NCBI GenBank assembly: GCA_963717435.1
Contig: OY970332.1
Span: 384,001 to 448,000 of the forward strand
From: an uncultured bacterium
GTDB taxonomy: Bacteria > Babelota > Babeliae > Babelales > Babelaceae
Length of the DNA stretch: 64,000 nt
Direction of reading: 5' to 3'
Shown: positions 357-61,872 of the stretch, piece by piece
Position numbering within the stretch: position 1 is the stretch's first letter
Layout: each line of letters opens with the position of its first letter
Program-made: the position numbers and the translations under genes
Notes under the pieces: model-generated
What the model was told of the DNA's origin: nothing
Database searches by the model: none
Seen by the model: only the letters and a program-made list of their open reading frames with translations

Positions 357-854
357 GTGAATAAGCTAATAATTATAGTTCTTATAACAAGTTTTGGTTA
401 TTCCTGGAGCATGGAAAATGAGCAAAAGGGAGCTGGTTCTGGCAAACCAGCTTACAAATCTTTAAAAACAGAAGTTAGCATAAATAACGCTGAATCTTCT
501 GGCGAAGAAGACACAAGTGAACTCGACGACTTATCTGACAAGGGCAAGGGCAAGAAAAACAGTCGCAATAATAACAATAATAATAACGGTAATAAACACA
601 AAAGAGCCGGCAGTGATGCCGTGATAACGATACACCTGGAAAATGGGGATTTTTCTATAGAGCAAAATAAGATAAATACAGAAAAGCAGGGGAATTTGAA
701 ACTTAAAGCGGCTGGGGCGGCTTGGAAAGCCTATTGTACCCCCAAGGCATTCAGGGATGCCTCCTGCGGAACCTTGGCCATATTTATGGTCTTTTTCCTA
801 TATAAAATGGCTTTGGCGGCAGAAAGCATAGCCAATGCCACAATATCTGATTAA
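357..854 (+). CDS. Secreted/membrane hypothetical protein with Asn-run low-complexity region
   Basis: ORF 312..854; GTG at 357 gives signal peptide NKLIIIVLITSFGYSWS followed by MENEQ; hydrophobic C-terminal segment. Confidence 0.6.
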   Translation: MNKLIIIVLITSFGYSWSMENEQKGAGSGKPAYKSLKTEVSINNAESSGEEDTSELDDLSDKGKGKKNSRNNNNNNNGNKHKRAGSDAVITIHLENGDFSIEQNKINTEKQGNLKLKAAGAAWKAYCTPKAFRDASCGTLAIFMVFFLYKMALAAESIANATISD

Positions 855-1000
855 ATCAGCTAAAAATGGGCCCAAAATTGACCCAGAATAGGCAAGACAG
901 CTGAAATATAGGATCATGACTAATTGGGGCAAAAATCGGGTTTGAACCTGTTTTTTAATTAAAATTCAAATAACTTAAAATATACTGACTGAAAACATAT

Positions 1001-1029
1001 TTTACATTATTTAAAATACGTGCTATGAT
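1001..1029 (+). promoter_or_regulatory. Sigma70-type promoter with extended -10 upstream of deaD
   Basis: TTTACA-17 bp-TATGAT with TG at the extended -10 position. Confidence 0.6.
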
Positions 1030-1070
1030 TGATAGTAATCAAAAGTGCCTGCAGGTTCAAATAACCTGGA

Positions 1071-1133
1071 TCCCCCTACGCCAGCACAGTTCTTCAAAGT
1101 TTGCAGAACATAGTAAAGGCTCCGGAGGACAAG
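1071..1133. repeat. B-type palindromic repeat module inside the deaD leader
   Basis: TCC-CC-CTACG...AAAGG-CTCCG-GA-GGA-CAAG, same architecture as the modules nested in the A repeats. Confidence 0.5.
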
Positions 1134-1439
1134 ACTGAAATCCCATCTTTTAAAGATTTAAGCAAGGCACCCACAGATTGTGCGTTTACCCGTTTCGGGC
1201 TTGCTGTTTAATACCCTAAGTTTCATTAAATAGTTGACGTAGCTGATGTTTATAAGTGCCCCCCAAATATTAAAAATAAATGGGTAAATGGGCTCGAATA
1301 TACTAATTTTTATTTAAAATTTAGTTATTTTTGTTCTTAAATAGTTAAAACAAAAAAAGAGAGTTTAATAAAAAATTTAATAAATTTTATAACCCAATTA
1401 ATAATTAATCTAATTAATCTAAAAGGACGAAACAATTTT

Positions 1440-3083: not shown

Positions 3084-3174
3084 TTATTAAGAAGTGCAAT
3101 TAAAAAACTGTGTTATTAAAGTTTTAATAACACAGTTTAGTTAAAATCAGAAGATATTATTTACTAGTTTATGG

Positions 3175-3211: not shown

Positions 3212-3232
3212 GTGATTATTATTTTTTTAAAA

Positions 3233-3581: not shown

Positions 3582-3586
3582 AATTA

Positions 3587-6042
<2,456 letters not shown>

Positions 6043-6273
6043 AATTAACCTAAATTTTTTAAATAATAACTATATAAATTATGTTAACAGTAAAATGGAA
6101 AAACTAAAAAAGATTTGTGTAGAAAAAGATATACTGCCCCTAAGGCAGGAGTAAACTTGGGATATTTACTGAATAGAATACTGGCAAAACTTGTAAAATA
6201 CAGCTTAAAATCTTCATATGTTATATTTTTGATGTTTTTTAGATTTTTGTCAAAAATTGATTTTGTATAGGGG

Positions 6274-6619: not shown

Positions 6620-7645
6620 TTAAGCCTGGCGTGATTTCAATAATTCAATCAATTTTTTCAGAAAAGCTTTTGTGTCGTACAATCCTGTAGAAAGGTTTCT
6701 GGGGCCTCTACAAAACCAATTTAACTCTCCCCATGACAAATTATCTTTAATAACCTGTTCTTGAACCTTTTTATGCCACGCTTCTGCCCGACTTAATTTT
6801 TCTTCAACCAACTTTGACGCATTTTCAAAAAAATCTTTTGATATATTATTGGGTAATTTATTTAAAATAAGTTCCATAATGCTGATTAAATTGTTTTTTA
6901 ATTCATATCTAACGTTATAATAATCAAATTGTTTCATACCAGAAAGCAATAATTCACCGAGCTCTTCCAGGCTAAGATCTGTGCTAAATTTAAATAAAAT
7001 ATCAAAAAAGTTATAATCGTATTCTTCGATAGCAAATTTTAAATACGGGGCTGCACCTGCTCCTAAATTTAAAAATTCGCGAGCAATCCCAAAGTGATCC
7101 GGATTTGAAATATTTTTTGGTTTAAGCAATTTTCTACGAAAAAGGCTGTTTAAATATTTCAAGTATTCTGGATCAGATTGTATTTTGTTTTTTGACCAAT
7201 TATATGCCTTGAAATTATATGCCACATAGGGAAGATATGATTTGGTTTGAAATTTAGTTTGATATTTTTTAAGATGCGAATTCAAGATCTCGCCAACAAT
7301 ATAAAGCTTTAATTTTTTATAATTAAGCTCTAAAATTTCAGCAGATTTTTCTTGCACATATTTTTCTGTAATTTTCTTAAATTGGCTGTTGGATGTAAAA
7401 GAATCGAAAGCTGCAAGCAATTCTTCTTCAGATTCAAATCCGGGTTCTAGTACATTAATAAAAGCACAAATTGGATCTTTTATATATTCTGGCAAATCGG
7501 GCGTAGTTTCCGTCATGTTAAAAAAATCTGCAAGCACATATTCTTGCTCATTAATATTTCCCACAAGATCAGTCTCCATAGAGAAAATACCAGGGAAAAT
7601 ATTTGTAAATACTAATAATAAAATTATATAAAATTTAAGTTTCAT
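6620..7645 (-). CDS. Secreted hypothetical protein (helical, possibly degenerate ankyrin-like)
   Basis: 341 aa; signal peptide then METD; segment IAREFLNLGA..PYLKFAI. Confidence 0.65.
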   Translation of the reverse strand: MKLKFYIILLLVFTNIFPGIFSMETDLVGNINEQEYVLADFFNMTETTPDLPEYIKDPICAFINVLEPGFESEEELLAAFDSFTSNSQFKKITEKYVQEKSAEILELNYKKLKLYIVGEILNSHLKKYQTKFQTKSYLPYVAYNFKAYNWSKNKIQSDPEYLKYLNSLFRRKLLKPKNISNPDHFGIAREFLNLGAGAAPYLKFAIEEYDYNFFDILFKFSTDLSLEELGELLLSGMKQFDYYNVRYELKNNLISIMELILNKLPNNISKDFFENASKLVEEKLSRAEAWHKKVQEQVIKDNLSWGELNWFCRGPRNLSTGLYDTKAFLKKLIELLKSRQA

Positions 7646-10474: not shown

Positions 10475-11134
10475 TTAGGCCTGAGCAAAGAAGCCTGCAA
10501 CAATTAAAACAAATAATGAACCATAAGCTACAATAAAAAGCGTGACTTCATTTTTATAATGGACTCCCCTTAGGCCTTCTCTTAATTCGTTCAATTCTTC
10601 TTCTTCTCTTTTTTGTTGGGAAAATTCGAGCGCCTCTTTTTCTGTTTGTTGCTTAGACAAGTCAAGAAAGAATAGCTTAAATTTTCTCAAATTCTCATCA
10701 CCCGCATCATAATGATTTATATGTCTTAATATTTCTGCCAAAGTCTTGTGTGAGATTTTTGCATCTTCTAAATCAATTATACATTTTAATGATTCTTCTA
10801 ATTCCTCTAGCTCATTTGGTTTATTTTTTAATTTTTCCAAGCTATTTAGGAATGATTCTGCGGCTTCTGGCTCAATATACTTGAATTTTTTCACCAGTTG
10901 CTCATAATCAACAACTGGTTTCTCATTTTTTGCAGGATCCTGTTTCTTAGAAAAAAAACTTCTTATCAAAGTATTCTTATTTAGCTTATTATTTAATAAT
11001 AAATTTTGTTTCAAAAAGCTTGAATTGCTAAGCTTTATCTTACTTAAATTTTTCAAAGCTTTTGGCCCAAACATGCTAAAAGTATTAAAACTTAAAAATA
11101 AACTCATAAAAAATAAAGATTTTGCAAAATTCAT
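10475..11134 (-). CDS. Secreted protein with mitochondrial-presequence-like mature N-terminus and C-terminal TM (paralogue 1)
   Basis: Signal ...LSFNTFS, then 45 acid-free basic residues including IRSFFS; shares IEPEAA/IIDLE core with 11181..11834. Confidence 0.75.
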   Translation of the reverse strand: MNFAKSLFFMSLFLSFNTFSMFGPKALKNLSKIKLSNSSFLKQNLLLNNKLNKNTLIRSFFSKKQDPAKNEKPVVDYEQLVKKFKYIEPEAAESFLNSLEKLKNKPNELEELEESLKCIIDLEDAKISHKTLAEILRHINHYDAGDENLRKFKLFFLDLSKQQTEKEALEFSQQKREEEELNELREGLRGVHYKNEVTLFIVAYGSLFVLIVAGFFAQA

Positions 11135-11180: not shown

Positions 11181-11834
11181 TCAATTAGAAATAGATCTTA
11201 GTATTATTAAAAGGCTAAAACCGATCCAGACTCCATACCACCTCTCTCGGTTTTCGGCGCGTTTTTCTTCTTTCAATTTATTTGTCTTTTTATTCTCTTT
11301 TTCTTCTTCTAGTTGACGCTGAGCCTCTTCAGTCTGGTATTTTGACAACTCAAAAATGAATGTCCTAATTTTTCTCAGATTCTTATTTTCTGGGCAATCA
11401 TGTTTTATATATCTCAATATTTCTAACATATTTTTAGGCGATAGGTTTGCGCCTTCTTCCAAATCAATTATGTTTTTTAAATTTCTTAATGCTTCTAACC
11501 CATCTGGTTTATTTTTTATTTCTTCAAAGAAGGCGAGCAATTTTAATGCCGCCTCAGGCTCAATAGAATATCTGAATCTTTCATCTATTTCCTTATAAGT
11601 AATAAAATTTTTGTCTCTGTTAGACTTATGATTCTTAATAGTAGAAAAATCTCTTATTAAAATAAGTGGCTTGGGCCCGATAATATTATTTAAATTATTT
11701 TTTTGATTTAAATAACCTAGATTATTCAGTTTTAATTTATTTAAGCTCTTTAAAGCTTGTGGTCCCCTCAACATAGAAAAACTATTAAAACTTAAAAATA
11801 AACCCGTAAATAACAAAACTTTTGTAAAATTCAT
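11181..11834 (-). CDS. Secreted protein with mitochondrial-presequence-like mature N-terminus and C-terminal TM (paralogue 2)
   Basis: Signal ...LSFNSFS, then MLRG... 41 acid-free residues leading to IRDFST; TM tail. Confidence 0.75.
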   Translation of the reverse strand: MNFTKVLLFTGLFLSFNSFSMLRGPQALKSLNKLKLNNLGYLNQKNNLNNIIGPKPLILIRDFSTIKNHKSNRDKNFITYKEIDERFRYSIEPEAALKLLAFFEEIKNKPDGLEALRNLKNIIDLEEGANLSPKNMLEILRYIKHDCPENKNLRKIRTFIFELSKYQTEEAQRQLEEEKENKKTNKLKEEKRAENRERWYGVWIGFSLLIILRSISN

Positions 11835-15575: not shown

Positions 15576-17213
15576 ATGAATAGTTTTAAAAAAATATTAT
15601 TTTTAATAAGTTTAGCTGCAATAAATTATAACTTAAATGCTTGGATCGCTGAGCTAAGAATAGAAAATGAAACAGAGTATCCCATTGATGTCCATGTTGA
15701 AACTAAAACAACATTTAATGATTATAATATAGAGCATAATAGAATACTTGATCTAAAACCATTGGAATCGGAGAATCTTAAGAAATTCACAATCAAATAT
15801 TCACCTAAGTATTCATCATACTTGTCAGGCAAAATGAGCCCTCTTGATATAGCAAAAAACATTGAAGAGATAGTTGAAGAGCAAAAGAATATTCACGTCG
15901 ATAATAAGTTAAAAATTCAGATAAAAGAAAATAAAGGGTGGACGCCAAAGGTTGGAGGTTATGGCCTTGTCCCTGAAATCAGTACTAATCAATTAAATGT
16001 TGGCACCGTTTCAATAGACGCTGAGGTTACAATCGAGGGCTTCAACCAAAAAACAAGTTTAGGCCATCAAGATTATAAAATAGATCAAAATCTTAGGACA
16101 TTCAAAGACATTGTAAATCTTATCATCCAGGATTATAAAACTAAAAAACTAAATTCTTACTATTATACTGTCACAGTATATAAATCATCCGGAAAACTCA
16201 TGAGACTTAAGCAAGAAGATTTAAATAAAACTTTAAAGGAATTCGGTTTTATTTATCCGGATACCATTGATATTTATTTTCATGAGACAAAGGAAATGCC
16301 TTTAATTAATTTAAGGGCTTCCATCGTATCGTCAGATTACCCCAAAAAGCCAAAAACAGAACAAATTACTATAGATAAATGGGACAGCCTAGAAAAATTA
16401 ATAAGGGTTCTTTCGGATGCTCATCAGGGATTTGCCAGACTAAAAAAAGATAACAATTATCAAATTAAGTTTGGTGACAAGACATATAAAGGTCCACTAA
16501 ATAGGAGTTTAGGCGAATTAAAATTGAGTGACAATGATGTTATAACATTCATATACCCCTTTATAACTATAAAGTGCAATTTAGTTGAAGTAGAACAAGT
16601 CCCTTCTTTCAGACAACCGAATAAAACTATAAAAGATTCAATTTATATTGCTATTGAAGGTGATAAAACCTTTGGAGAATTAGAACAAAAAATTAAAAAA
16701 GAATCTAAGATTTTTTCAAAAACATTTAGTGAATTAAGATCATTAGACAAACTATATTATGTAGAATTTAATGGCAAAAACAGAGCAGAATATGAAATTT
16801 CAAGCGATGAGACATTATATTCGTTGGGCATAAAAGACAATTCTTTAATCATTTTTAACTATTATGTGGAACAAAAATCCACTTCCAAAACTCAAGGACC
16901 CCAAAAATCTGCGCAGCAATTAGCAAATAGCCCGTACTACATACTTGGCCTTCCTGACAAAGCGGATGATGCTCAAATACTTGGTTTAACTGAGGAACAG
17001 TTAAAAAATAAATCTGAAGTAAAAAAAGCATACTATAAATTAGCGGTGATCTGGCATCCCGATAAAAGAACAACTAATGAGATTGCAATAAAGCGTTATT
17101 CTGATCCAGAAGTTTTAAAAGCTATTGGACCCGATCCTGATGGCAAAAAAATTAAAGCTTTGTCAGAAGAAGTGTTTAAGCTTATTTCTAACGCTTATGA
17201 TCGTAACAATTAA
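15576..17213 (+). CDS. Secreted protein with ubiquitin-like repeats and C-terminal J-domain
   Basis: Signal peptide; three beta-grasp-like units ending KTLKEFGF, RSLGELKL, ETLYSLGIKDNSLI; PYYILG...KKAYYKLAVIWHPDK...FKLISNAY. Confidence 0.8.
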   Translation: MNSFKKILFLISLAAINYNLNAWIAELRIENETEYPIDVHVETKTTFNDYNIEHNRILDLKPLESENLKKFTIKYSPKYSSYLSGKMSPLDIAKNIEEIVEEQKNIHVDNKLKIQIKENKGWTPKVGGYGLVPEISTNQLNVGTVSIDAEVTIEGFNQKTSLGHQDYKIDQNLRTFKDIVNLIIQDYKTKKLNSYYYTVTVYKSSGKLMRLKQEDLNKTLKEFGFIYPDTIDIYFHETKEMPLINLRASIVSSDYPKKPKTEQITIDKWDSLEKLIRVLSDAHQGFARLKKDNNYQIKFGDKTYKGPLNRSLGELKLSDNDVITFIYPFITIKCNLVEVEQVPSFRQPNKTIKDSIYIAIEGDKTFGELEQKIKKESKIFSKTFSELRSLDKLYYVEFNGKNRAEYEISSDETLYSLGIKDNSLIIFNYYVEQKSTSKTQGPQKSAQQLANSPYYILGLPDKADDAQILGLTEEQLKNKSEVKKAYYKLAVIWHPDKRTTNEIAIKRYSDPEVLKAIGPDPDGKKIKALSEEVFKLISNAYDRNN

Positions 17214-17271: not shown

Positions 17272-18639
17272 ATGAAAAATATTAAAAAAATATTATTTTT
17301 AATAAGTTTTGTCCTGTTAAACACAAATATAAATTCAAATATAGACGTCACTGTTAAATTGCAAGGCATTACAGGTGAAGATATAGAGACAAAAAGTTTT
17401 CCAATCTCAGATACGAATACTTTGCAAAACTTCATAAACAAATTCTTTTCTCTATCCAAAAAACTTAACAAATTTGACAAAGATAATTTGTATTTTATGA
17501 AAATTGATGACAATGAAATAATGTACGATCATAGCAAAAATAAACCATTAGCAGATCTTGGTGTACGAAATAATTCTATAATAGTTTTAATATATAATTA
17601 TTCTAGATCAGACAGCTCGCAAAAACCAAAAGCCAAAACCTCTTTTGAAAGTAAAAATATCAAAAAGATAGACGTTACTGTTAAATTGCAACCCATTATG
17701 GGGCAAAATATAGAGACAAAAGTTTTTTCAATCCTACCTACGGATTCTTTGGAGACTTTGATCAATACATTCTTCTCGCTATCGGAAGCATTTGATAAAT
17801 TTGAAGAATATCTTTTGTATGATATTACAATTGATGGCAATCGAATAGATTATACTTATTATAACAAAAATAGATCATTAGCAGATCTTGGCGTACAAAA
17901 TGATTCTACAATAGTTTTAAAATATTATGATAATTCGAGATCAGGCAGCTCGCAAAAACCAAAAGCCAAAACCTCTTTTGAGAGCAGAATAACCGTTTAT
18001 GTAACATTGATAGAAAGAGTGGGGGCAGCCGCTGTAACAAAAGAGAATAAAATTTATAAAATTTCAAATCAAAAAAGCTTAAGGGATCTGCTTAATGCTT
18101 ACTCATCAAAATCTTCAATTTGGGATTATATAAAATCAGCAAACATGCCTTACTCAATTTATGTTGATGGCCGCCTAATAACTCAATATGATTACTCAAA
18201 AACTTTAGACGCTTTGGGTGTAGAAGACGATTCAAAGATAAATATTGAATATGAAGGCGTTTCCGAAAAACCGCGCGCCCAAAGACCTTATGAATATTAT
18301 CCTAAACAAGAACAGCCACAAAAAACTCAACAACCTGCGCAGCAATTAACAATTAGCCCATACTACATACTTGGCATTCCTGATAAAGCAGGTGATGCTC
18401 AAATACTTGGTTTAACACGAGAGCAGCTAAGAGATAAATCTGAAGTTACAAAGGCTTACAGAAAATTAGCGCTGATCTGGCACCCCGATAAAAGAACAAC
18501 TAACGAGATTGCAAACAAACGTTATTCTGATCCAGAACTTTTAAAAGCTATTGGACCCGATCCTGATGGCAAAAAAATTAAAGCTTTATCAGAAGAGGTG
18601 TTTAAGCTTATTGCTAACGCTTATGATCGTAACAATTAA
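17272..18639 (+). CDS. Secreted 3x ubiquitin-like + J-domain protein (copy 1)
   Basis: Units ending KPLADLGVRNNSIIVL, RSLADLGVQNDSTIVL, KTLDALGVEDDSKINI; HPD J-domain. Confidence 0.85.
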   Translation: MKNIKKILFLISFVLLNTNINSNIDVTVKLQGITGEDIETKSFPISDTNTLQNFINKFFSLSKKLNKFDKDNLYFMKIDDNEIMYDHSKNKPLADLGVRNNSIIVLIYNYSRSDSSQKPKAKTSFESKNIKKIDVTVKLQPIMGQNIETKVFSILPTDSLETLINTFFSLSEAFDKFEEYLLYDITIDGNRIDYTYYNKNRSLADLGVQNDSTIVLKYYDNSRSGSSQKPKAKTSFESRITVYVTLIERVGAAAVTKENKIYKISNQKSLRDLLNAYSSKSSIWDYIKSANMPYSIYVDGRLITQYDYSKTLDALGVEDDSKINIEYEGVSEKPRAQRPYEYYPKQEQPQKTQQPAQQLTISPYYILGIPDKAGDAQILGLTREQLRDKSEVTKAYRKLALIWHPDKRTTNEIANKRYSDPELLKAIGPDPDGKKIKALSEEVFKLIANAYDRNN

Positions 18640-24823: not shown

Positions 24824-25858
24824 TCAAACCTCGTTGTTGCTCTTTTCTAATATTCTATCAAGCTGGTCAGAGAGTTCTCTAAGATCTAAGCTATAAGAAT
24901 AGCTCGATAGGGATTTTTTTATCGGTAAATTGTCTAGTAAGGCAATTAATTCTGCATCAGAAAGATCACTTAATGTTTTTTCAAGGTAGGTAAAAATTTC
25001 TTTCGTTGAAGAAAGTCGCCCAATAAATCCATATTTATTGTAAAGCCCAATTGATTCAAATTTTTGTATTGCAGCAAATAATAATAATTTACAATTAGCT
25101 ATTGAAGGGACTATAAGAGTACCTTGCTTAATTGGAAGAGAAATTCTCGCAGATTGTAATGCAGAAGACTTAGTAGAAACCTTTCTGCAAAAAAGGTGTT
25201 TAGCATATAAATTTTGGGAATTGCGTATTTGATTACCAAAATATTCCAATATCTTTGGAGGAATTTGCTGAATATCTGGTGTATGTATTCCTGCTAATAA
25301 TGCATGCTCTTTTTTTTCAGGAGCAAATGTATGCAAATATTTGATAAATTCTTCGTCCGTTTCATTTTGTGGGTACAAATGTCCGAATTTGTATTTAAAA
25401 TACTCATACATAATTTTTAAATTACGAACAATAAGTATATATCGTGTTCTATTCACGTAATAATCCACCACATTCATTAACTTATTTGTATGAGTGCTAA
25501 ATTTTTTTGCTTGCGGCCCACAGTATATTATTTCTTCTGATAACAAATTTTTTATAGCCATAGCTAATACTAAAGGATTAACTTCTGCTTGCTCTTTATC
25601 ATCACACGACAATAAAATAATTGGATTTATTTCGTTCAAAGCATTATAGCAATCACATAGAGAATCTAATTCAGTTGATAAACAGTGTAATTTTTGAGCA
25701 CGATATTGCTCATCATCAGCTGGAAGTAATAATTTGGAGAATGCCGCTTCTTGTTCTTGTACTTGCAAATCAACGTTAGTTGTATTGTCTTGTTCCATGC
25801 AACAGCCTGTCCTTGCTGTACTTATTGCTATTAACGTAACCATAACAACATAGTTCAT
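24824..25858 (-). CDS. Secreted hypothetical cargo protein
   Basis: 344 aa; signal peptide then MEQD. Confidence 0.65.
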   Translation of the reverse strand: MNYVVMVTLIAISTARTGCCMEQDNTTNVDLQVQEQEAAFSKLLLPADDEQYRAQKLHCLSTELDSLCDCYNALNEINPIILLSCDDKEQAEVNPLVLAMAIKNLLSEEIIYCGPQAKKFSTHTNKLMNVVDYYVNRTRYILIVRNLKIMYEYFKYKFGHLYPQNETDEEFIKYLHTFAPEKKEHALLAGIHTPDIQQIPPKILEYFGNQIRNSQNLYAKHLFCRKVSTKSSALQSARISLPIKQGTLIVPSIANCKLLLFAAIQKFESIGLYNKYGFIGRLSSTKEIFTYLEKTLSDLSDAELIALLDNLPIKKSLSSYSYSLDLRELSDQLDRILEKSNNEV

Positions 25859-30825: not shown

Positions 30826-31515
30826 ATGAAAAAAATTATTTATCTACTTATTTTTAACGCCTTAAATTCAATTGCTATGTCTTCTCAAGATAAATATCAA
30901 AAATTTACAGATGCCATAATCAATAACCAACAAGACAAAGCTAAATCCATGCTGGAGGGTTCAATTAAGCCCAACGTCTGTCTGAGTTATCAGGGCAAGT
31001 TATTGCTATGCATCTCGGTTGCATTAAAAAATAAAAATATCGATATGGCCCGCCTACTAACTAAAGTTTTAACAGACAAAATAAGCACACAAGAAGAGCG
31101 TTCCATATGGGAGAATCCATTTACATCAGCATTTCAAGATGCTGCTAACGAGGGAAATATAGAATTAATTGATCAATTAATGTTGCTACCAATTCCTGAT
31201 CGCATCAAAAAAATTGGGTGCGGCATTGCATATTCTTTAAGTATTTCCCAAAATCATTCTTCTGTAATTAAAAAATTGTTTGATAACTATGAAGATTATT
31301 TAGAAGACCCATGTTTTTGTGCCTCATTTGAATGGGCCGCTATATGTTTTCCCGAAAAGCACAATGAAATTTTAGATATTATATTAAGCAATTATAGTGG
31401 ATTATCTAACTTTAAGGAGCTGATAAAATCCGGCCGCTTAAATTATCCCGATAGAAAACAGCAATATATAGATTTATTAAATCGATATGAAAAAAAAGCC
31501 GCACAGGAATTATGA
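30826..31515 (+). CDS. Secreted degenerate ankyrin-repeat protein
   Basis: Signal then MSSQ; AFQDAANEGNIELIDQLM, KNIDMARLL. Confidence 0.65.
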   Translation: MKKIIYLLIFNALNSIAMSSQDKYQKFTDAIINNQQDKAKSMLEGSIKPNVCLSYQGKLLLCISVALKNKNIDMARLLTKVLTDKISTQEERSIWENPFTSAFQDAANEGNIELIDQLMLLPIPDRIKKIGCGIAYSLSISQNHSSVIKKLFDNYEDYLEDPCFCASFEWAAICFPEKHNEILDIILSNYSGLSNFKELIKSGRLNYPDRKQQYIDLLNRYEKKAAQEL

Positions 31516-35458: not shown

Positions 35459-36529
35459 ATGAAAAAAGTAATATTGATTTTTAGTTTAGTTATCCCGACT
35501 AGTTCGATCAAAAGTATGGATAGACTTACCAATATCAATAACAAAATAGAATCTAAAAAAACAAAAGTTTTAGCTATTCCAGATGCAAATGACATGGGCA
35601 GTGAAGCCGATTATATCGCAGAGATCTTGGGTGAAAATCAAGTCAGAGTAAAAAAAGTGTACAACCCAAAATGGCCTGACTTGGGGCAAGATAAATGCAT
35701 AAAATATTTGAAATATGAAATTGACACTTCTAATAAAACAGAAAAAATTATAATTCATGCAACGGGACAAGGCACCGCCACTGCTTTAAATTATCTTGGA
35801 GACGATAAAGATGCACATAAAATTGATGGGTTAATTTTAGAATCTGTAATCGCAAGTGGCAATCAATATATAATAGATCTTCTAAAGTCATCCAACTCTA
35901 CATTTGTAAATTGGCCGTTGGCATATTACTGGTTGCCATATATTTCAATGGTCAGATGCTTTGTTCCATCATATTCACCATCTGGCAAACAGGCTATCAA
36001 ATCTATTAGGTCGATACCAATAAATATACCCGTTATAATTATCAACACCAAAAGAGATACTCAGGCATATGATGCCGCATCTGCGTTATATTATGGTCTA
36101 AAAGAACATGGTAACTATGTATATTTAATTGGCGACTCAAAGACAAGAAGTGTACGACTTATCGAATCTCTTGAAGAAAAAAATCTTATTCAAAGTATTT
36201 TGAAAAATCATAAATTAATTAAAGGCAAAAAGAAGCAGGAAGAAACAGATTTAAGCGTGACTAAACCAGACCGCAGACTATCCAAAAAGATTTATGATGA
36301 TCTGCTTTCTAAAGAATATAAACATGAAGGAATAAAGCTCCTGGTTATTTCTGCCATCGTTGTCATTGTCGGGTCAGTTTTAATAATAATAGTTTGTAAA
36401 GTTTTAATAAAAGTAATGGAAGAAGATACATTTCCAGATCATATTGATTCGACAACACTTGATGAAAAATTCTTAGAACAAGAAAAACTTTTAGATCAGT
36501 CTATTCTATTTTTAAAAAAGGTGGGGTGA
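35459..36529 (+). CDS. Secreted degenerate alpha/beta-hydrolase-like protein with TM segment
   Basis: IIIHATGQGTATALNY, IDGLILES, IPVIII; no Ser in the elbow. Confidence 0.65.
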   Translation: MKKVILIFSLVIPTSSIKSMDRLTNINNKIESKKTKVLAIPDANDMGSEADYIAEILGENQVRVKKVYNPKWPDLGQDKCIKYLKYEIDTSNKTEKIIIHATGQGTATALNYLGDDKDAHKIDGLILESVIASGNQYIIDLLKSSNSTFVNWPLAYYWLPYISMVRCFVPSYSPSGKQAIKSIRSIPINIPVIIINTKRDTQAYDAASALYYGLKEHGNYVYLIGDSKTRSVRLIESLEEKNLIQSILKNHKLIKGKKKQEETDLSVTKPDRRLSKKIYDDLLSKEYKHEGIKLLVISAIVVIVGSVLIIIVCKVLIKVMEEDTFPDHIDSTTLDEKFLEQEKLLDQSILFLKKVG

Positions 36530-36550: not shown

Positions 36551-37330
36551 ATGAAAATACCATTAACAATTTTGATTTTTGCTATCAGTTTAAACTTAAT
36601 GGGAATGGATAATAATGTTTCTAAAAATCAACAAGAAATAGTTAATTCTACTTCTGATCAGTTATTTACAGATATTAACCGTCTACACAGCTATGCGCAT
36701 ATACCCAAAGAGCTTAAGAATTTAAAGAAAAAATTAAATTCTGAATTTATGAAAGAAGCTAAAATTAACGATTTAGTTTCATACATTTATTATCCTAGTA
36801 TAGTTATCGGCGGCCATTCTGAAGTAGAAGCGGAAGGAATTTGTGCTGATATTGATTTTTTTAAAAAAACAAAGTTATTAGACCACAGATTGCGTAAAAT
36901 TCGTAGAGCAGCGTCTTCAGAAATGAATTTCCCATTTTTTCGTTATGTTATTGCAGTAACTCCAGAACAACTGGCAAAATTAAGAGAAAATATCAGCGAA
37001 AGCACTCCAGGCCATTGTGCTTTTGCTTCGCTTACAAAACTTTCAAAAAATTGTAATTATAATGTGCCATTTTTATTTAAACTACCGCCGCCATTGGCCT
37101 CTGGGTTATACCTACACTGTGCAAAAGCCTTGGGATCAAAAAGAATTTCCAAAATAGAATTTTACGGCAATGAAAATCGGATAAAAAATCTAATAATATT
37201 ACCAGGAGTTCTTACAGACTCTATTGTTATATTAGGAGTGACAGGCATACTAGTAGTAATAATTGTTACTACTGTGTTATTAAGCAACATAGATACAAAT
37301 AGTACTTGCTCAATCGAAGAATATCAATAA
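36551..37330 (+). CDS. Secreted hypothetical protein with C-terminal TM
   Basis: Signal then MDNN; hydrophobic tail. Confidence 0.65.
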   Translation: MKIPLTILIFAISLNLMGMDNNVSKNQQEIVNSTSDQLFTDINRLHSYAHIPKELKNLKKKLNSEFMKEAKINDLVSYIYYPSIVIGGHSEVEAEGICADIDFFKKTKLLDHRLRKIRRAASSEMNFPFFRYVIAVTPEQLAKLRENISESTPGHCAFASLTKLSKNCNYNVPFLFKLPPPLASGLYLHCAKALGSKRISKIEFYGNENRIKNLIILPGVLTDSIVILGVTGILVVIIVTTVLLSNIDTNSTCSIEEYQ

Positions 37331-37491: not shown

Positions 37492-38016
37492 ATGTTCAAA
37501 AAAATATTTTTACTGGGAAGTTTTATTTTTGTAAATTCGGCCGTGCCAATGGAGAATCAAATCAATAGCCGAAATGTTTTTGGCCATACTCCTCTGCATT
37601 ATTGCTCAATGTTGCCTGAAGAAATAATTAATTGCTATTTGCCGCATAAGGATGAGCCCCTGGCGGCATTATTGATAAGCCACCAACAGTCGCTTATAAA
37701 TGATTTACCAAAGCGTGACGCGGCTTCGTCAAATTTTGCTGGGAAGGGATATTGGATGGGAGCAGATATTTATATTAAAGATAATTCAGGATTAAGCGCT
37801 TGGGATTATGCCCAAAAAAATAAAAACAAGCTACCTAATGTATTTAAAGTATTTAATGCGGTGAATATTATTAATACTGCAAAAGGCAAGTTGCCTAAAA
37901 CGGATAGCAATGGTGCATATTCTTGGGACCAACTTGCAAATATGCACCCCATGTCAGATCAAGAACTTATTCAATGGGCAGAGGCAGAAGCTGTACTAGC
38001 TCCTTATAAAAATTAA
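37492..38016 (+). CDS. Secreted ankyrin-like protein
   Basis: Signal then MENQ; INSRNVFGHTPLHY, GADIYIKDNSGLSAWDYA. Confidence 0.7.
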   Translation: MFKKIFLLGSFIFVNSAVPMENQINSRNVFGHTPLHYCSMLPEEIINCYLPHKDEPLAALLISHQQSLINDLPKRDAASSNFAGKGYWMGADIYIKDNSGLSAWDYAQKNKNKLPNVFKVFNAVNIINTAKGKLPKTDSNGAYSWDQLANMHPMSDQELIQWAEAEAVLAPYKN

Positions 38017-38185: not shown

Positions 38186-38893
38186 TTACTTACTATTTAA
38201 GCTAATTGCCTCAATCTCAACATGATCTTGATAATTGTGCTCGTTTATTGCCAGCTCAATATATGGTGGATATTTTTGTATCGTTGTTACGCCACAGGAT
38301 ACTAGAAAACTTTTTAAAAATCTTATCCCATCAAGATAAGACTTAGCAGGAGATTTAAGCTCTACTTCTATAAAAGTGCCCATTAATTTCATGTGTTCCG
38401 GTTCTGAAAATGTATCAAAAACCATCTCTATCTTTGATCCTCCATGTAAAATATCATATTTAATTCGTCGTTTTTTTAATTTAATTTTTTCACTGGAAGT
38501 TGTCCCGTATCCCAGATTTTGTAAAATCGCATCCATAGTTTCTGTGTTTTCTATTTTCACTTCATGTTCAATAACTGCGCCTGCAGATCGCTTTTTTAGA
38601 GTAATAAACGAACCTTTTGGCGTTTTGCGCAAGCGAAGATAATTGGACATTTTTTTATATCCGTCCAATTCTATTTTGGGTATGCAACTTGGCCCCATAA
38701 AATATGTTTCGGACATCTCAACAGTTGTGGGTTCATTTGCTTCTAATATTTTTTGCAGCGTGGCCGATTGGCCAGGCAAAATCTTAAATTTTAGTTCTAT
38801 TTCCTGGGGTTCATTAGAGTTATTGGGCTCATTTAAATCCATGCAAAAAGACGAAGTAGAACAAACTAAAAGCGAGAAAATATATTTTTTCAT
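38186..38893 (-). CDS. CYTH-domain (class IV adenylate cyclase/triphosphatase family) protein with signal peptide
   Basis: EIELKF, LRLRK, ITLK, EHEV, LGY, KKRR, FIEVE. Confidence 0.8.
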   Translation of the reverse strand: MKKYIFSLLVCSTSSFCMDLNEPNNSNEPQEIELKFKILPGQSATLQKILEANEPTTVEMSETYFMGPSCIPKIELDGYKKMSNYLRLRKTPKGSFITLKKRSAGAVIEHEVKIENTETMDAILQNLGYGTTSSEKIKLKKRRIKYDILHGGSKIEMVFDTFSEPEHMKLMGTFIEVELKSPAKSYLDGIRFLKSFLVSCGVTTIQKYPPYIELAINEHNYQDHVEIEAISLNSK

Positions 38894-42588: not shown

Positions 42589-43188
42589 TTAGAGTGCAAA
42601 GTAGCTTTTACCATAAGCTAATTCCAACTCTGTCATTTTATTTTGTGTAAATTCTTGAGCCGTTTTTTCTCTTGCTTCAAAAGTATCTGGTATAAGATTC
42701 AGTCTTACATGTTCTCCTGCAAGACATTTTCCATATTTTAACATTGCATCATAAGCCGCTTGGGGATTTTTAATATACTGCTCTTGTCGGATAGTTAATC
42801 GTTCTTCTTTGGTTAAACATTGAGAAAATACAAACATTCTAGCAGCAACATATTCTCGTATTTTTATTAAAGTATGGGCTATCATTTCTTCGTTATATTT
42901 AAGCGGGACATTAAGCGCGCGGGCTTTTTGGCAAAATCCTGCAACAAATCTTCCTAAAAGTTCTGTTACAGTTTCCATATTATTCACATAAGAACCATCT
43001 TGATTAAAAACATTTTTATCTTCTTCTGACAAATCTTTAAGTCCCCAACTAATTGATGTTTTTGTAATTTCAAACCATTTAAGACAATCCCCCTCTTCTT
43101 GAGTTAAGAGCTTTAAACTTTCTTGATTCATAGAAATTAGGGATGAGAAGCAAACTGATATTAAAAATATTTTTTTTATTATGTTCAT
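42589..43188 (-). CDS. Secreted hypothetical protein
   Basis: Signal then MNQE. Confidence 0.65.
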   Translation of the reverse strand: MNIIKKIFLISVCFSSLISMNQESLKLLTQEEGDCLKWFEITKTSISWGLKDLSEEDKNVFNQDGSYVNNMETVTELLGRFVAGFCQKARALNVPLKYNEEMIAHTLIKIREYVAARMFVFSQCLTKEERLTIRQEQYIKNPQAAYDAMLKYGKCLAGEHVRLNLIPDTFEAREKTAQEFTQNKMTELELAYGKSYFAL

Positions 43189-46201: not shown

Positions 46202-47302
46202 TTAATTTCTAGATTTACCAAAAAGCATATTAATTAGCGCTTCTTTCTCATCTGAAGAATTAAAGCGCATCTTCTCGATATAATCAAATGGTGTATATCC
46301 CAAATGATCGGTAATTGATGTATCAAGTTTGCCCGACATTTTTAATGTGGCAATAAAAGTGATCACTTTGCGATTATCAAGAATAAAATCTTTAGACTTA
46401 TCCATATATTCACCAATAGACTGGAAGTTAGATCTGGTCCCTTTGTGATTGCGCAAGACTATATGCAATGGGGTATGTTCAATTTTAAAGCATTGCTTAT
46501 TAACATCTGCGCCATTTTTTATAAGCTCAAGAGCCATGCGCCAATTTGCATTTACAGCTGCATAATGCAGAGGCGTTTCTCCCTCACGATCACCAGCATT
46601 AATCAACTCTGCTTTCTGTGAATCTGTAAGGGCACCAAGAATAGCCTTAAGACAATCTAAATTCTTGCCCCATACCGCACAATGGATAGGGTTGCGCTTT
46701 GATTTATCGGTCAAAAATTCAGCTCCATTTTCAAGCAAAATATTAACCATCTCAAGATTTCCAGCTACAAGAGCTGTATGAAGTGGTGATATTCCTTGGT
46801 TGTTTTGACAGTTAATTTCTGCTTTATGGGCGATTAACTTCTTTGCGCAAAAATTATGAAATTTGAAAATGGACCAATGTAAAGCCGTATCACCTTTTTC
46901 ATCCGCCAAATCAGGATCCGCACCATATTCAAGCAACATTTTTGCTATAGTATCATGTCCATTACCACATGCCCATTGCAACGGGGTTTTTCTATTGTTA
47001 TCACGAACATCAACCGTTGCGTCATTTTTTAGCAAATAATTTACTATATCAAAATAACCGGCGTAAGAAGCCCAATGCAAAGCAGTTGACCCCCTTTTAT
47101 TTCTTACGTCTATATCAACTAACCCAGAAAGTCTTTTTACGCTCTCAAGATCATTTTGGCTTGCAAGGTAAATGAAGTCTGCTTCATTTCTTGATAATAG
47201 AAAGCCTGTCTCACTTGTGATATAAGATTCTTGCTCCATGGCATTTATGCCACCGAAACATGAAAAAATAGTTAAAAATAGCTTATTTAGACTCTTTGAC
47301 AC
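46202..47302 (-). CDS. Secreted ankyrin-repeat protein
   Basis: About 7-8 repeats (GSTALHWA, TPLQWAC, GETPLHYAA); signal then MEQE from GTG 47302. Confidence 0.9.
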   Translation of the reverse strand: MSKSLNKLFLTIFSCFGGINAMEQESYITSETGFLLSRNEADFIYLASQNDLESVKRLSGLVDIDVRNKRGSTALHWASYAGYFDIVNYLLKNDATVDVRDNNRKTPLQWACGNGHDTIAKMLLEYGADPDLADEKGDTALHWSIFKFHNFCAKKLIAHKAEINCQNNQGISPLHTALVAGNLEMVNILLENGAEFLTDKSKRNPIHCAVWGKNLDCLKAILGALTDSQKAELINAGDREGETPLHYAAVNANWRMALELIKNGADVNKQCFKIEHTPLHIVLRNHKGTRSNFQSIGEYMDKSKDFILDNRKVITFIATLKMSGKLDTSITDHLGYTPFDYIEKMRFNSSDEKEALINMLFGKSRN

Positions 47303-47554
47303 TGTAACCCCACTAGTTTTTTGATTATTATTTTGGTAGATATTTATCATACTAAATATTATCTAATTGTCAATAATAAGCAGATATTGCAGGTCCAAAT
47401 GGGATAATCCAGTAGCCCAAACTGGGCTATATGAAACAAAATAAAAATAGTTAATTTAAAATTAATTAGCAGGGGTCTTGTATTTTACGGGACCCTAATC
47501 TTAAACTAATAGTAGTTTTAAATATTTTCGTACAATTAATCAGGGGTAATCTGT

Positions 47555-51235: not shown

Positions 51236-52609
51236 ATGAGGATTACAAATACTTTATCGAAGAATCTTGCGTTAACTTTACTTGTGTTTGCGCCGCAATT
51301 ATTTGCAATGCAAGGCACGCTGGACACATCATTTAATCCAACTGGAACACCTCCCGGCTCAGTCGTCACACCAATTCCCGGCAGTTCAAGTAGCCAAATA
51401 AACTCAATAGCAATACAATCCAATGGGCAAATTGTCGCAGGGGGATCTGCGCGCATAAGTAGCAACCCTGAATTTACACTAGCAAGATATAACACCAATG
51501 GAACTCTGGACACCAGTTTTGGCAGTAACGGCATTGTTATTACCGCAATTGGCATTGGCGGCAGTGAGATATTCTCAATATCGATACAATCTAATGGACA
51601 AATTGTCGCAGGGGGACAGGCAAATATAAGTGGGGCACAAACATTTGCATTGGCTAGATATAACACCAATGGAAGTTTAGATAATAGTTTTGGTACCAAT
51701 GGCGTTGTCACCACTCAGATTAGTGGAAACACAGGTGGCTCAATATCCTCAATAGCGATACAAGCCAATGGGCAGATTGTTGCCGGTGGATATGCAACCA
51801 TAGGCGGCAATCACGAATTTGTACTAGCAAGATACAACACCAATGGAACTCTGGACACCAGTTTTGGCACTAATGGCATTGTCACTACAGAAATTGGCAG
51901 TTCAGATAGCAATATATATTCAGTAGCAATACAATCTAATGGGCAAATTGTTGCTGGCGGAGATGCAAACCCAGGCGGCAACTTTGAATTTGCACTAGCA
52001 AGATATAACACCAATGGCAGCTTGGACACGAGCTTTGGCACTAATGGTATTGTCACTACCAAAATTGGCAGTTCAGATAGCATAATACATTCAATAGCTA
52101 TACAAGCCAATGGTCAAATTGTTGCTGGAGGAGGTGCAACCATAGGCAGCAATGACGAATTTGCATTAGCAAGATTTAACAGCAATGGCAGCTTGGACAC
52201 CAGTTTTGGCAGCAATGGAACTGTTACCACCCCAATAGGCGGATCTAGCATCGACATAGCTTCAATATCCATGCAATCGGATGGCAAAATTGTCGCTGTC
52301 GGATATAATATAGACTTTGGCTCAACGCCTTGTGCATTGGCACGATACAATACAAATGGCAGTTTGGACACCAGTTTTGGTACCGGCGGGATTGTGACAA
52401 CTACTAATGAGCCTTTTGGGAAAATGACTTCGATAGCAATACAATCTAATGGACAAATTGTTGCCGGCGGAGTGGACTCAACAGGAAGCAATTTTGCACT
52501 GGCTAGATACAATGCAAGCACAAGTTTGACACAAAGTTCGCTGACGCTTGCGCTAAAAAACAAGTACTACGCTAATGGTAGTGGAGCAAAACAAGGCCCC
52601 GTATTTTAA
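51236..52609 (+). CDS. Secreted delta-60-repeat (beta-propeller) protein
   Basis: About 7 repeats of SIAIQSNGQIVAGG...FALARYNTNGSLDTSFG.NG.VTT. Confidence 0.88.
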   Translation: MRITNTLSKNLALTLLVFAPQLFAMQGTLDTSFNPTGTPPGSVVTPIPGSSSSQINSIAIQSNGQIVAGGSARISSNPEFTLARYNTNGTLDTSFGSNGIVITAIGIGGSEIFSISIQSNGQIVAGGQANISGAQTFALARYNTNGSLDNSFGTNGVVTTQISGNTGGSISSIAIQANGQIVAGGYATIGGNHEFVLARYNTNGTLDTSFGTNGIVTTEIGSSDSNIYSVAIQSNGQIVAGGDANPGGNFEFALARYNTNGSLDTSFGTNGIVTTKIGSSDSIIHSIAIQANGQIVAGGGATIGSNDEFALARFNSNGSLDTSFGSNGTVTTPIGGSSIDIASISMQSDGKIVAVGYNIDFGSTPCALARYNTNGSLDTSFGTGGIVTTTNEPFGKMTSIAIQSNGQIVAGGVDSTGSNFALARYNASTSLTQSSLTLALKNKYYANGSGAKQGPVF

Positions 52610-58919: not shown

Positions 58920-58940
58920 AAAACTTTCTTAAATTATACT

Positions 58941-59465: not shown

Positions 59466-59540
59466 ACCAACTCTCCCTATATATTTTCTAAAACAAAATG
59501 GCCCAGAAAAATTCTGAGCCATTTTTATAATAGCAAAAAA

Positions 59541-59747
59541 CTATTTTTTCTTTCTTAGCATTGGAAGTCCGGTACGCTTGTTTTCCATAACTTCGTAACC
59601 AGCTGGCAATGCATCAAGAGAATTAGGTTTATCAACTTCCCCTGCAAAATAATAGATCTTTTGCAAACGATCGCCTGCAAGTTTTACTTGCTTTGTGTGC
59701 AAGTAGTACATTTTGCCGCTTTTTTTGGATTTAACACTATATGCCAT
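59541..59747 (-). CDS. Small basic conserved-type hypothetical protein
   Basis: AAGGAG SD, downstream hairpin; YYLH...IYYF...LPAGYEV.EN.RTGLP.LRK. Confidence 0.75.
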   Translation of the reverse strand: MAYSVKSKKSGKMYYLHTKQVKLAGDRLQKIYYFAGEVDKPNSLDALPAGYEVMENKRTGLPMLRKKK

Positions 59748-59893
59748 GGTATTTAACTCCTTGTTACCATTATTTTACATATTTTTGTTCTATAATTTGT
59801 AGATACTTAAGACAAAGTAATAGAACAATAAAAAAAAATCCAGAGATAATTGTAATTTTATTCTTGGGACCGAAACAGAATTTAGGTTCTTGG

Positions 59894-60006
59894 CCGCTCG
59901 CCCCGAGTGAAATTCCGTAGGAATTTAGTATCGAGGGGTCGGCAAAAAAACAAATCTTACATCCCTCGATACATTTTTTCTACGAAAAAACACTCGGGAT
60001 GAGCGG
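59894..60006. repeat. Convergent pair of A repeats
   Basis: 59894..59938 (+) and 59960..60006 (-), each with a single cGTAg-loop hairpin. Confidence 0.85.
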
Positions 60007-60150
60007 GTGCAAATTATTCTGTTTGTGAAATTTGTCAAAATTTAAAAACTCAACAGAGCCTAGTTAAAACTCAAAAAATTGTTATAATAATTTTCAGATT
60101 TAAACTATAAATTACAAGTAAAATAAAAAAACAATAATCAGGAACAAATC

Positions 60151-61356
60151 ATGCAATCAAGACCCAAAATTTTATTATATGCGCTTATAACTATTTCAGT
60201 AGCGTGGTTCAGCTGGAACTCCTATAAATATTTTTTCTATAAATCTGCACCAGATTTAACAGTTTCTGGAATAGAAGATAACGGCTACTATTCAGGTGAT
60301 GTGCAGTGTATTGTAACAGGACATGACGCATATAAAGTTGCAAATATTTCTGCCTGGCTAGATGGCAAAAATTTGGTAAACAAGCATAAAATTAGCAGAA
60401 AATATTTTGATTACACAGTGCCGATTTCAACAAAAACTATAACCAACGGCAAGCATATTTTAAAAATAGATATCGAAAATGGAATCTACAATCGAAAATC
60501 AACAAGCAAAGAGATCGTCTTCTATGTGGACAATCTCCCATTGCAGGCGGCATTTGTAAAATCTGAATCTGATTACAAAGTTTTCCAGGGCCGCACGCTG
60601 CACATTCAGTTCCAAACAAATAAAGAGATTAAATCAGCTCAAGTTAATGCTCTTTCAAAAACATACGACTGCTTCCCAGAATCACAGGGCGCATTAATAT
60701 ACGAGTGTTTTATTCCGATATCTTGCGAAGAGTCGCCTAACGAATATCTGGCATCTATCGATATTCAAGACAAAGTTGGAAATAGCTTAAATTTAAATCT
60801 AAAATTTCATGTCGTTGCGTTCCCATTTAAAAAACAAATTGTAAAAATTACCCCTGAAAAATTGAGGCTTGAACAAGAAGCGGGACAAAGTGAAAAAGCT
60901 CTTGATGATGCCATTGAAGAAGTTACAAAAAATTCTCCAAAGAAAAAATTATGGCAGGGAATGTTTTACGCCCCAACAGATATTAAAGCAGTAACTACAG
61001 ACTTTGGCACAGTAAGAACAACTCAGCACAGAGGCCTATATGCGCATAAAGCTGTTGATGTGACAAATACCCCAAGATCTGTTGTTTGGTCAACCCAAGA
61101 TGGCATCGTTGTCTTAAAAGACAGATTTGCGCATAGCGGCAACACAGTTGCGGTCGATCATGGCTACGGAATAATTTCTCTTTTCTTTCACTTGGATAAT
61201 TTTGCTAACATTAATGTTGGTGACAAAATCAAACGCGGCAACCCTGTCGGCACACTTGGCATGACGGGTCATGCTACTGGTTATCACTTGCATTGGGAAA
61301 TGCGCGTAAATAATATAGCGGTTGACCCTCTACAATGGATCAAGCCTGGGTTTTAA
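60151..61356 (+). CDS. M23 family metallopeptidase with N-terminal anchor and Ig-like domain
   Basis: HKAVD, GNTVAVDHG, ATGYHLHWE. Confidence 0.88.
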   Translation: MQSRPKILLYALITISVAWFSWNSYKYFFYKSAPDLTVSGIEDNGYYSGDVQCIVTGHDAYKVANISAWLDGKNLVNKHKISRKYFDYTVPISTKTITNGKHILKIDIENGIYNRKSTSKEIVFYVDNLPLQAAFVKSESDYKVFQGRTLHIQFQTNKEIKSAQVNALSKTYDCFPESQGALIYECFIPISCEESPNEYLASIDIQDKVGNSLNLNLKFHVVAFPFKKQIVKITPEKLRLEQEAGQSEKALDDAIEEVTKNSPKKKLWQGMFYAPTDIKAVTTDFGTVRTTQHRGLYAHKAVDVTNTPRSVVWSTQDGIVVLKDRFAHSGNTVAVDHGYGIISLFFHLDNFANINVGDKIKRGNPVGTLGMTGHATGYHLHWEMRVNNIAVDPLQWIKPGF

Positions 61357-61380
61357 TTTAAAAAAAGAGAAAGATAATTT

Positions 61381-61872
61381 ATGTTGAAAAAATTACTCTT
61401 ATTTGCGACAGTTTTTATTTCAGCACAAGTTTATGGTATGACTGGCAGCACTTGCTGTGAGTGCAACAAATTCTTTACTGACATAGACAAGTTTGAAAAA
61501 CACTTTGAATATACCTCAATTTGTTTCGAAAATTATGTCAAAAAAATGGAAAATCGGTTCGCTGATTGGTTTGGTCCAAACTCAAAAGAAGTGCAGGAAT
61601 TTCGACAAAATATTGAAAACTATAAGAAAGACCCTAGTCAAAAGAGGACTGGCGGTACCTGCTGCGAGTGCAACAAAAAATTTGCTGACAACGACAAATG
61701 GGCAAAACACTTTGAATACCCATCGATTTGTTCCGAAAATTATCTCAAAAGAATGGAAATTTTGATAGTAGATAATTGGGATCCAAATTCACAATATATG
61801 CGGGAGTTTCGACAAGATATTGAAAACAAAAAGAAAGCCTACAATCAACAAAAAGAAAGTAGTAAAAATTAA
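61381..61872 (+). CDS. Secreted protein with two C2H2/C2HC-like zinc-finger repeats
   Basis: CCECNKFF.....F..H......C present twice; signal then MTGS. Confidence 0.7.
   Translation: MLKKLLLFATVFISAQVYGMTGSTCCECNKFFTDIDKFEKHFEYTSICFENYVKKMENRFADWFGPNSKEVQEFRQNIENYKKDPSQKRTGGTCCECNKKFADNDKWAKHFEYPSICSENYLKRMEILIVDNWDPNSQYMREFRQDIENKKKAYNQQKESSKN

Follow-up and report, generated by a model that had tools for sequence, protein, structure and literature searches.

Dependentiae are widespread parasites of protists in which a third or more of the proteome is exported through Sec. A 64,000-nucleotide stretch of one such genome, from an uncultured bacterium of the Babelaceae (assembly GCA_963717435.1, contig OY970332.1, positions 384,001 to 448,000; hereafter the window), raises the question of why the apparent signal peptides of fourteen of its proteins end directly before a methionine. 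A preliminary description of the window had listed these junctions and proposed either that cleavage yields host-like N-termini for effectors or that the Met is part of an export or sorting code. Here we confirm that the pattern is real, genome-wide and far above chance, and we describe why the Met at the predicted cut looks both clade-specific and selected.

At all fourteen places in the window a gene opens with a signal-peptide-like stretch that has a small-x-small end and is followed by Met, and the flanking residues match those first described exactly. The further claim that ten of the junctions read ME, MD, MN or MQ is borne out (five ME, three MD, one MN and one MQ). The positions originally listed are the gene starts and not the Met codons, which lie 17–24 codons further in; we therefore dropped the idea that the junction Met is a mere start codon preceded by an in-frame leader. 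Each protein begins with Met (Val, from GTG, in two cases), then Lys or Asn, then a hydrophobic stretch, with 17–24 residues in all before the junction Met. The residue at −1 is Ser, Ala, Gly or Cys in 13 of the 14, the exception being a Pro in the gene that starts at 37492, and Lys or Arg occurs within the first eight residues of all but the gene starting at 25858. Purine-rich Shine-Dalgarno-like motifs are found 6–10 nucleotides 5' of the first start codon in the window genes, and not 5' of the inner Met.

In order to place these fourteen proteins in their genomic setting, we analysed the whole genome (a single contig of 1,198,203 bases, 35% G+C), in which a simple gene caller of our own identified 1210 genes covering 89% of the sequence. 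Its place in the Dependentiae accords with its CTP synthase, which shares no more than 56% identity with named genomes from several other phyla, and with the membership of a single order by all 60 genomes drawn from the phylum. To pass our strict signal-peptide filter, a protein had to have a hydrophobic core free of charges and preceded by Lys or Arg, its uncharged run could not exceed 28 residues, and there could be no additional membrane segment. The cleavage sites, all of them rule-predicted, were assigned by a rule that scores −1, −3 and nearby charges only and is blind to +1. The filter passes 377 proteins (31% of the genome's proteins), in line with the 44% of coding sequences for which the text of one isolate paper gives a Phobius signal-peptide prediction in a member of the Dependentiae (PMC6561590). 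Met is enriched at +1, where it occurs in 45 of 363 signal-peptide-like proteins (12.4% against a background of 1.6%, 7.8-fold, binomial p = 6e-26), and is the commonest residue at that position, followed by Asn and Ser (30 each). The strict filter is conservative, as it flags only seven of the fourteen window genes as being of the Met type, one as having another signal peptide and six as having none; a looser filter finds a small residue followed by Met in 130 of 1176 proteins. When the looser filter was applied to two outgroups, the most enriched +1 residue in both was Cys, as expected from lipoproteins, which supports the method.

Several features indicate that the leaders belong to the Sec and signal peptidase I route. 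Position 2 of the signal-peptide-like proteins is Lys in 53% and Asn in 14%, although the positively charged n-region is partly, and the hydrophobic core likewise, a product of the filter that demanded them. Among the 120 proteins with a Met no more than 12 residues past the core, −1 is Ser, Cys, Ala or Gly in 90 and −3 is Ile, Leu, Ser, Ala, Val, Cys or Thr in 108. The genome has one match to the signal peptidase I model TIGR02227 (115.6 bits) and a SecA_DEAD match. A charged n-region, a core ending in small −3 and −1 residues, and genes for signal peptidase I and Sec are all present, and the sequences are predicted to be Sec substrates. They do not resemble lipoproteins cut by signal peptidase II, as +1 is Met and a Cys at −1 occurs in 21 of the 120, mostly outside a Leu-x-x context; the gene at G000 148653 (ending ILPGC/MD, where a slash marks the predicted cut) is probably a true lipoprotein that the filter miscounted. 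Nor do they resemble type IV prepilin leaders, the hydrophobic stretch here lying before the cut and the sequence after it being polar and acidic. It is odd that in a genome where a third of the proteins bear Sec signals secA itself (G000:C1:532188-534754) is split into at least four reading-frame pieces of 104, 268, 71 and 189 amino acids; this fragmentation, together with a genome completeness of 88.8%, points to assembly indels. We also observed at many loci (for example at 300–320 kb) that usually cytoplasmic enzymes bear hydrophobic N-terminal extensions of 25–60 residues that pass the signal-peptide filter, amongst them sugar-nucleotide epimerases and dehydratases, UDP-glucose dehydrogenase, thioredoxin-reductase-like proteins and AhpC.

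The residues that follow the Met are also strongly biased. Glu (40) and Asp (12) follow it in the set of 120 defined above, and among 98 carriers of the junction under the strict criteria +2 is Glu or Asp in 52, whereas in proteins that lack a signal peptide an acidic residue occupies position 2 in 62 of 716 (p = 8e-24), and about 11% of inner Mets generally precede one. Glu accounts for 41% of the carriers' +2 residues, Asp for 12%, Gln for 6% and Asn for 4%, and as Asn makes up 6–7% of residues here it lies below its background. Together these four residues follow the junction Met in 62 of the 98 and are enriched as a class, and bulky hydrophobic residues are scarce (11%, versus 27% following inner Mets). 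The acidic bias extends to +4 and +5 (26–29% versus 13%), net charge over the first 15 mature residues is −1.24 compared with −0.23 in other signal-peptide proteins, and the sequence past the junction is polar and acidic, with a mean hydropathy of −0.94. The pattern is not a product of paralogy, as the 98 carriers are spread over 74 BLAST families. That a signal-peptide cassette had spread by recombination we set aside by eye only, the signal peptides of unrelated carriers being diverse. We likewise rejected N-myristoylation after Met removal (by eye, Ser or Thr stands at the consensus position in one of 11 Met-Gly proteins) and a eukaryotic start context, since the −3 nucleotide is T in 52%, which is not Kozak-like.

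Two other explanations had been raised in the preliminary description, namely that the Met is a second translation start and that it is a neutral leftover of a recent signal-peptide fusion. With regard to the former, a Shine-Dalgarno motif of at least four bases stands ahead of 48% of start codons overall and of 47% of those of the carriers, yet ahead of only 3% of junction Mets, as compared with 9% of other inner Mets; the junction Met is not a second Shine-Dalgarno-driven start. A leftover also appears unlikely, given that Glu or Asp comes next in 53% as opposed to 9% at ordinary starts, and that the Met is the best-conserved column in diverged paralogs: in 46 paralog pairs sharing no more than 70% identity it was identical in 72%, versus 13–52% in the 24 neighbouring columns, and the same conservation can be seen in alignments of individual families.

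A more distant comparison is afforded by the window gene at 35459..36529 (plus strand), whose signal peptide spans 35459-35515 (ending SIKS) and is followed by the Met codon at 35516-35518 and then DRL. Its product has no Pfam match at E 0.001, but a search of representatives of clusters at 50% identity yielded 285 relatives; the family conserves PGQNG and ATSQG motifs as well as an invariant or near-invariant Asp and His, and weak matches to Peptidase_S9 and Hydrolase_4 occur in 30 and 27 of 40 members, respectively. Judged by these motifs and matches, the product is a predicted secreted alpha/beta-hydrolase-like protein. We counted N-termini in the 110 listed members in which the PGQNG motif could be placed, all of them representatives at no more than 50% identity. 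Fifty-three have a signal peptide and a small residue followed by Met (in 36 then Glu or Asp), 41 have a signal peptide without that Met, and 16 have no signal peptide. The Met is thus found in 53 of 94 signal-peptide-bearing members, while the spacer between it and the PGQNG motif, mostly 9–23 residues, is unalignable, and we read this as a junction Met that is retained while its surroundings drift. By labelled genome, the small residue and Met occur in two genomes each of families f10 and f14, and are lacking in one f14 genome and in the f11 genome, where the sequence reads HG/AAN. The family is patchy in the phylum, being held by 10 of 61 genomes.

To determine how widely the junction occurs, we ran the same pipeline on single stretches of 100–200 kb from seven relatives and two outgroups, with one to three genomes per family; kin are not independent. 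In the bacterium's own family (f1) the residue at +1 of the rule-predicted site was Met in 19 of 69 proteins of one genome (G004) and 4 of 41 of another (G011), and in families f10 (G027) and f14 (G034) it was Met in 9 of 64 and 14 of 64. A weaker signal came from f5 (G061, 7 of 71), where most instances belong to one paralog family reading S/MYA; these ankyrin-type paralogs have a junction of their own (VMS/MYAAQE). There were none in f12 (G029, 0 of 65) or in a 100 kb sample of f11 (G062, 0 of 21), nor in the outgroups, a Fusobacterium (0 of 14) and a member of the Bdellovibrionales (0 of 32). The Met junction therefore belongs to part of the Dependentiae (f1, f10, f14 and, more weakly, f5; none in f11 and f12) and not to all heavily exporting bacteria. 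True orthologs of the carriers were too few in the relatives' 200 kb samples, where most matches were repeat proteins.

The preliminary description had spoken of effectors, and the proteins that carry the junction are indeed effector-like. In a Pfam scan of 94 carriers (E 1e-4), 64 had no match, 13 matched ankyrin, five WD40, one LRR and two DUF5122 propellers, with PP2C, CYTH, NADAR and AAA amongst those found once. For comparison we scanned the first 133 of 267 referenceable other signal-peptide proteins, of which 54 had a Pfam match; these include cell-wall amidases, M23, S49, FKBP, thioredoxins, TamB, an outer-membrane barrel and a periplasmic binding protein, so that the majority of envelope housekeeping proteins fall outside the Met class, and only four ankyrin proteins. 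Ankyrin, WD40, LRR or propeller repeats are thus present in 21 of 94 carriers versus 4 of 133 other signal-peptide proteins (p = 6e-6). Across the whole genome, about 14 of 29 ankyrin and five of eight WD40 proteins have the Met junction (nine and four by the filter, the rest by eye). Carrier genes are also clustered, with 24 adjacent pairs where 7.8 would be expected; none of 2000 shuffles gave more than 18.

We hypothesize that these are real Sec-type signal peptides and that the single detected signal peptidase I most likely cuts directly before the Met, the next residue usually being Glu or Asp. The resulting junction, with Ser, Cys, Ala or Gly before the cut and Met-Glu or Met-Asp after it, would be kept by selection in one clade of the Dependentiae and would tag approximately 10% of the proteome. 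Most of the tagged proteins are orphans that evolve fast or repeat proteins of eukaryotic type, their genes lie in clusters, and they are likely host-directed effectors. The exposed Met-acidic N-terminus would then act as a sorting or maturation mark that distinguishes them from resident periplasmic and outer-membrane proteins, and it would most plausibly be read for the next step out of the periplasm, whether secretion or vesicle loading. Taken as a whole, this selected, clade-specific mark is the best explanation that we can offer, although we hold it tentatively and put it somewhat short of an even chance. Onward sorting fits both the clade restriction and a preference for charge over NatB class, and has precedents in the export signals of Bacteroidota and Plasmodium considered below. 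The genome's export machinery, comprising signal peptidase I, the pieces of SecA and a type II secretion core of GspC/GspD type, is in keeping with it. Whether the Met-Glu end constitutes a new bacterial signal for host targeting or second-step export, read by a machine that in one Dependentiae clade picks at least 100 effectors from a crowded periplasm, is more speculative, and we regard it as possible but doubtful.

Several observations weigh against this interpretation. The cleavage sites all come from a home-made rule, the class of other signal peptides contains false positives such as Rossmann-type N-termini, and paralog alignments may favour Met-Met matches. The clade restriction rests on the single stretches and related genomes described above. 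Nor is the split between protein classes clean: of the 29 ankyrin proteins, nine have a signal peptide that lacks the junction Met, envelope housekeeping proteins are not significantly depleted amongst carriers (3 of 94 versus 12 of 133, p = 0.11), half of the comparison class (133 of 267) was scanned, and host mimicry would predict the same association with protein class as a sorting tag. In the CYTH family the junction Met is kept in three of 11 orthologs, with Thr, Val or other residues in the rest; the mark can therefore be lost, and some share of scar or start-switching history is possible. Finally, no reader of the tag was found. One candidate was type II secretion: the cluster at G000:C1:586445-595275 comprises genes for two secretins, one of them GspD-like, for a PilM-like protein and for a GspC-like protein that has a PDZ domain. 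The GspC-like gene, however, recurs throughout the phylum, in 60 of the 61 genomes, and so shows no correlation with the trait; we rejected type II secretion as the reader.

The alternative closest to the preliminary description is that the N-termini mimic those of the host. NatB acetylates proteins that begin with Met-Asp, Met-Glu, Met-Asn or Met-Gln, and Met is a stabilising residue in N-degron pathways, so that in the host cytosol such an end would resemble an untrimmed new host protein and the effector would be stabilised by acetylation, by escape from N-degron recognition or by both. The abundance of these four residues at +2, the rarity of bulky hydrophobic residues there and the richness of the carriers in eukaryote-like repeat proteins and orphans are all consistent with this idea. 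Met-Asn, however, is as good a NatB substrate as Met-Glu, and its scarcity alongside the 41% of Glu suggests that charge is preferred and not membership of the NatB class. Stabilising residues also include Ser, Ala, Thr, Gly and Val, which are ordinary at +1; these would serve as well, and host mimicry does not explain Met in particular. Moreover, NatB is universal in eukaryotes, yet the trait is missing in two signal-peptide-rich Dependentiae families (f12 and f11), and NatB acts mainly on nascent chains. We consider host mimicry unlikely; of the two proposals originally made, the specific NatB reading is weakened on these grounds, and an export or sorting code appears to fit at least as well.

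The remaining alternatives derive the Met from a start codon in one way or another. It could be an evolutionary scar, the old start codon left at the junction without selection when an upstream extension of the reading frame added a signal peptide. Such additions would be in keeping with the very large signal-peptide share in Dependentiae (the 44% and 31% given above), usually cytoplasmic enzymes included, and with carriers being young or orphan genes; in the CYTH family 6–13 residues separate the Met from the first conserved strand, and eight of 11 orthologs have lost it, and the 16 hydrolase-family members without a signal peptide start at about the junction Met, several with ME. A scar is nevertheless hard to reconcile with the acidic residue at +2, which the genome's own start codons rarely have, with the lack of any remnant Shine-Dalgarno motif (3%, below the 9% before any inner Met), with the placement of the Met exactly after a small-x-small site in 75–90%, with its conservation in diverged paralogs and its persistence in 53 of 94 hydrolase relatives, and with sister families that have equally many signal peptides and no Met junction; we judge it distinctly unlikely. 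If the inner ATG were instead a second start in current use, each gene would yield an exported form and a signal-less cytoplasmic one. The junction residue is always encoded by ATG, about half of the genome's genes lack a Shine-Dalgarno motif of four or more bases anyway, and signal-less hydrolase relatives beginning ME are present in the database, though these could also be gene-calling choices. Against dual starts, Shine-Dalgarno motifs are depleted before the inner Met, there is no −10-like box at leaderless spacing (A is found in 2% at position −8), the tight −3/−1 pattern and the acidic run would have no role, and cytoplasmic copies of some hundred host-directed repeat proteins make little sense, which together render this possibility very unlikely. 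Least credible, indeed barely so, is the notion that translation truly starts only at the Met, the apparent signal peptides being AT-rich leaders that can be read in frame but are not translated. In-frame AT-rich DNA does yield peptides rich in Phe, Ile, Leu and Lys, and our own gene caller preferred the inner ATG for the gene at 357; but Shine-Dalgarno motifs stand before the upstream starts as often as in all genes and not before the Met, position 2 has the Lys and Asn expected of an n-region, 11 independently called CYTH orthologs can be aligned over the hydrophobic stretch and the first Met, and the same filters returned the Cys expected from lipoproteins in both outgroups.

Besides the hydrolase-like gene, thirteen genes in the window have the junction. 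Six lie on the plus strand. The gene at 357..854 has a GTG start, a predicted signal peptide at 357-410 (ending YSWS), its Met codon at 411-413 and then ENE, and its product has no Pfam match. At 30826..31515 the signal peptide (30826-30876, NSIA) is followed by Met at 30877-30879 and SSQ; at 36551..37330 (36551-36604, NLMG) by Met at 36605-36607 and DNN; and at 37492..38016 (37492-37548, SAVP) by Met at 37549-37551 and ENQ, the Pro at −1 making this the least canonical site. A DUF5122 beta-propeller protein is encoded at 51236..52609, with its signal peptide at 51236-51307 (QLFA), Met at 51308-51310 and then QGT, and the gene at 61381..61872 has its signal peptide at 61381-61437 (QVYG), Met at 61438-61440 and then TGS.

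The others are on the minus strand. The gene at 6620..7645 (signal peptide 7580-7645, GIFS; Met 7577-7579, then ETD) has no Pfam match, and a search for relatives among 5.8 billion proteins returned the query itself as sole match. The genes at 10475..11134 (signal peptide 11075-11134, NTFS; Met 11072-11074, then FGP) and 11181..11834 (11775-11834, NSFS; Met 11772-11774, then LRG) are paralogs. They are followed by genes at 24824..25858 (25799-25858, TGCC; Met 25796-25798, then EQD), at 38186..38893, which encodes the CYTH-domain protein (38843-38893, SSFC; Met 38840-38842, then DLN), at 42589..43188 (43132-43188, SLIS; Met 43129-43131, then NQE) and at 46202..47302, which encodes an ankyrin-repeat protein (47240-47302, from a GTG start or else from an ATG at 47350, GINA; Met 47237-47239, then EQE). 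Elsewhere in the window, tandem 455-amino-acid genes at 17272-18639 and 18698-20065 are identical over their first 45 residues and have near-identical Pfam scores; each product has a C-terminal DnaJ domain and a signal peptide that lacks the Met junction, and a third, longer relative lies at 15576-17213. The leucyl-tRNA synthetase gene (3587-6069, minus strand) is broken into more than ten pieces over all three frames between intact adjoining genes, and is either a decayed gene or the site of local indel errors in the assembly.

We found no description of the trait in the literature. In the main texts of two isolate papers, whose supplementary tables lay outside the search, the word "methionine" occurs 0 times in either, and "cleavage" (PMC6561590) and "cleavage site" (PMC4378268) likewise 0 times; Additional file 9 of the latter is cited there as holding signal-peptide predictions for that isolate's ankyrin proteins. 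If the favoured interpretation is correct, a two-residue mark at the mature end would provide a simple sequence rule for listing the effector repertoire of this clade, and would help to identify the bacterial or host machine by which it is read. In addition, signal-peptide predictors trained on model bacteria may misplace or underscore such Met-junction sites.

The putative mark can be compared with several known systems. With the Sec and signal peptidase I (LepB) pathway it shares a positive start, a hydrophobic core, small residues at −3 and −1, and the presence in the genome of one signal peptidase I gene and SecA; ordinary signal peptidase I sites, however, tolerate almost any +1 residue and rarely have Met (0 of 46 in the two outgroups), whereas here Met is the commonest and is followed by Glu or Asp. 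After predicted cleavage 62 of the 98 carriers would start like NatB substrates, but Asn is nearly unused here (4%) and the ends would arise post-translationally, outside the host ribosome. According to the proteobacterial lipoprotein +2 rule, Asp at +2 retains a protein in the inner membrane, and there too one or two residues right past the cut decide the final compartment, although the rule concerns lipoproteins handled by Lol and not Met-first soluble proteins. In Bacteroidota, as described in PMC5080379 and PMC10319031, the lipoprotein export signal (LES) is a short negative stretch right past the signal-peptide cut that sorts proteins to the surface and to outer-membrane vesicles. The acidic residues enriched at +2, +4 and +5 recall this signal, but in the LES the acidic stretch comes after a lipidated Cys at +1, where signal peptidase II cuts, while the junction here has Met at +1 and lacks a lipobox, and its proteins are presumably soluble; an acidic run without a +1 Cys makes the likeness one of analogy and not of membership. 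The Plasmodium export element (PEXEL) leaves a mature end that is acetylated and has Glu, Gln or Asp as its second residue. According to PMC10653839 and bioRxiv 10.1101/2023.07.12.548774, cutting after entry into the endoplasmic reticulum exposes the mature N-terminus needed for export into the host cell. A Met-acidic motif would similarly mark a whole effector repertoire, with the difference that PEXEL is eukaryotic, lies downstream of the signal sequence and is cut by plasmepsin V, whereas here the bacterial signal-peptide cut itself would expose the end. By analogy, an export signal of this kind, if real, would stand beside PEXEL, as its equivalent in bacteria, or beside the LES.

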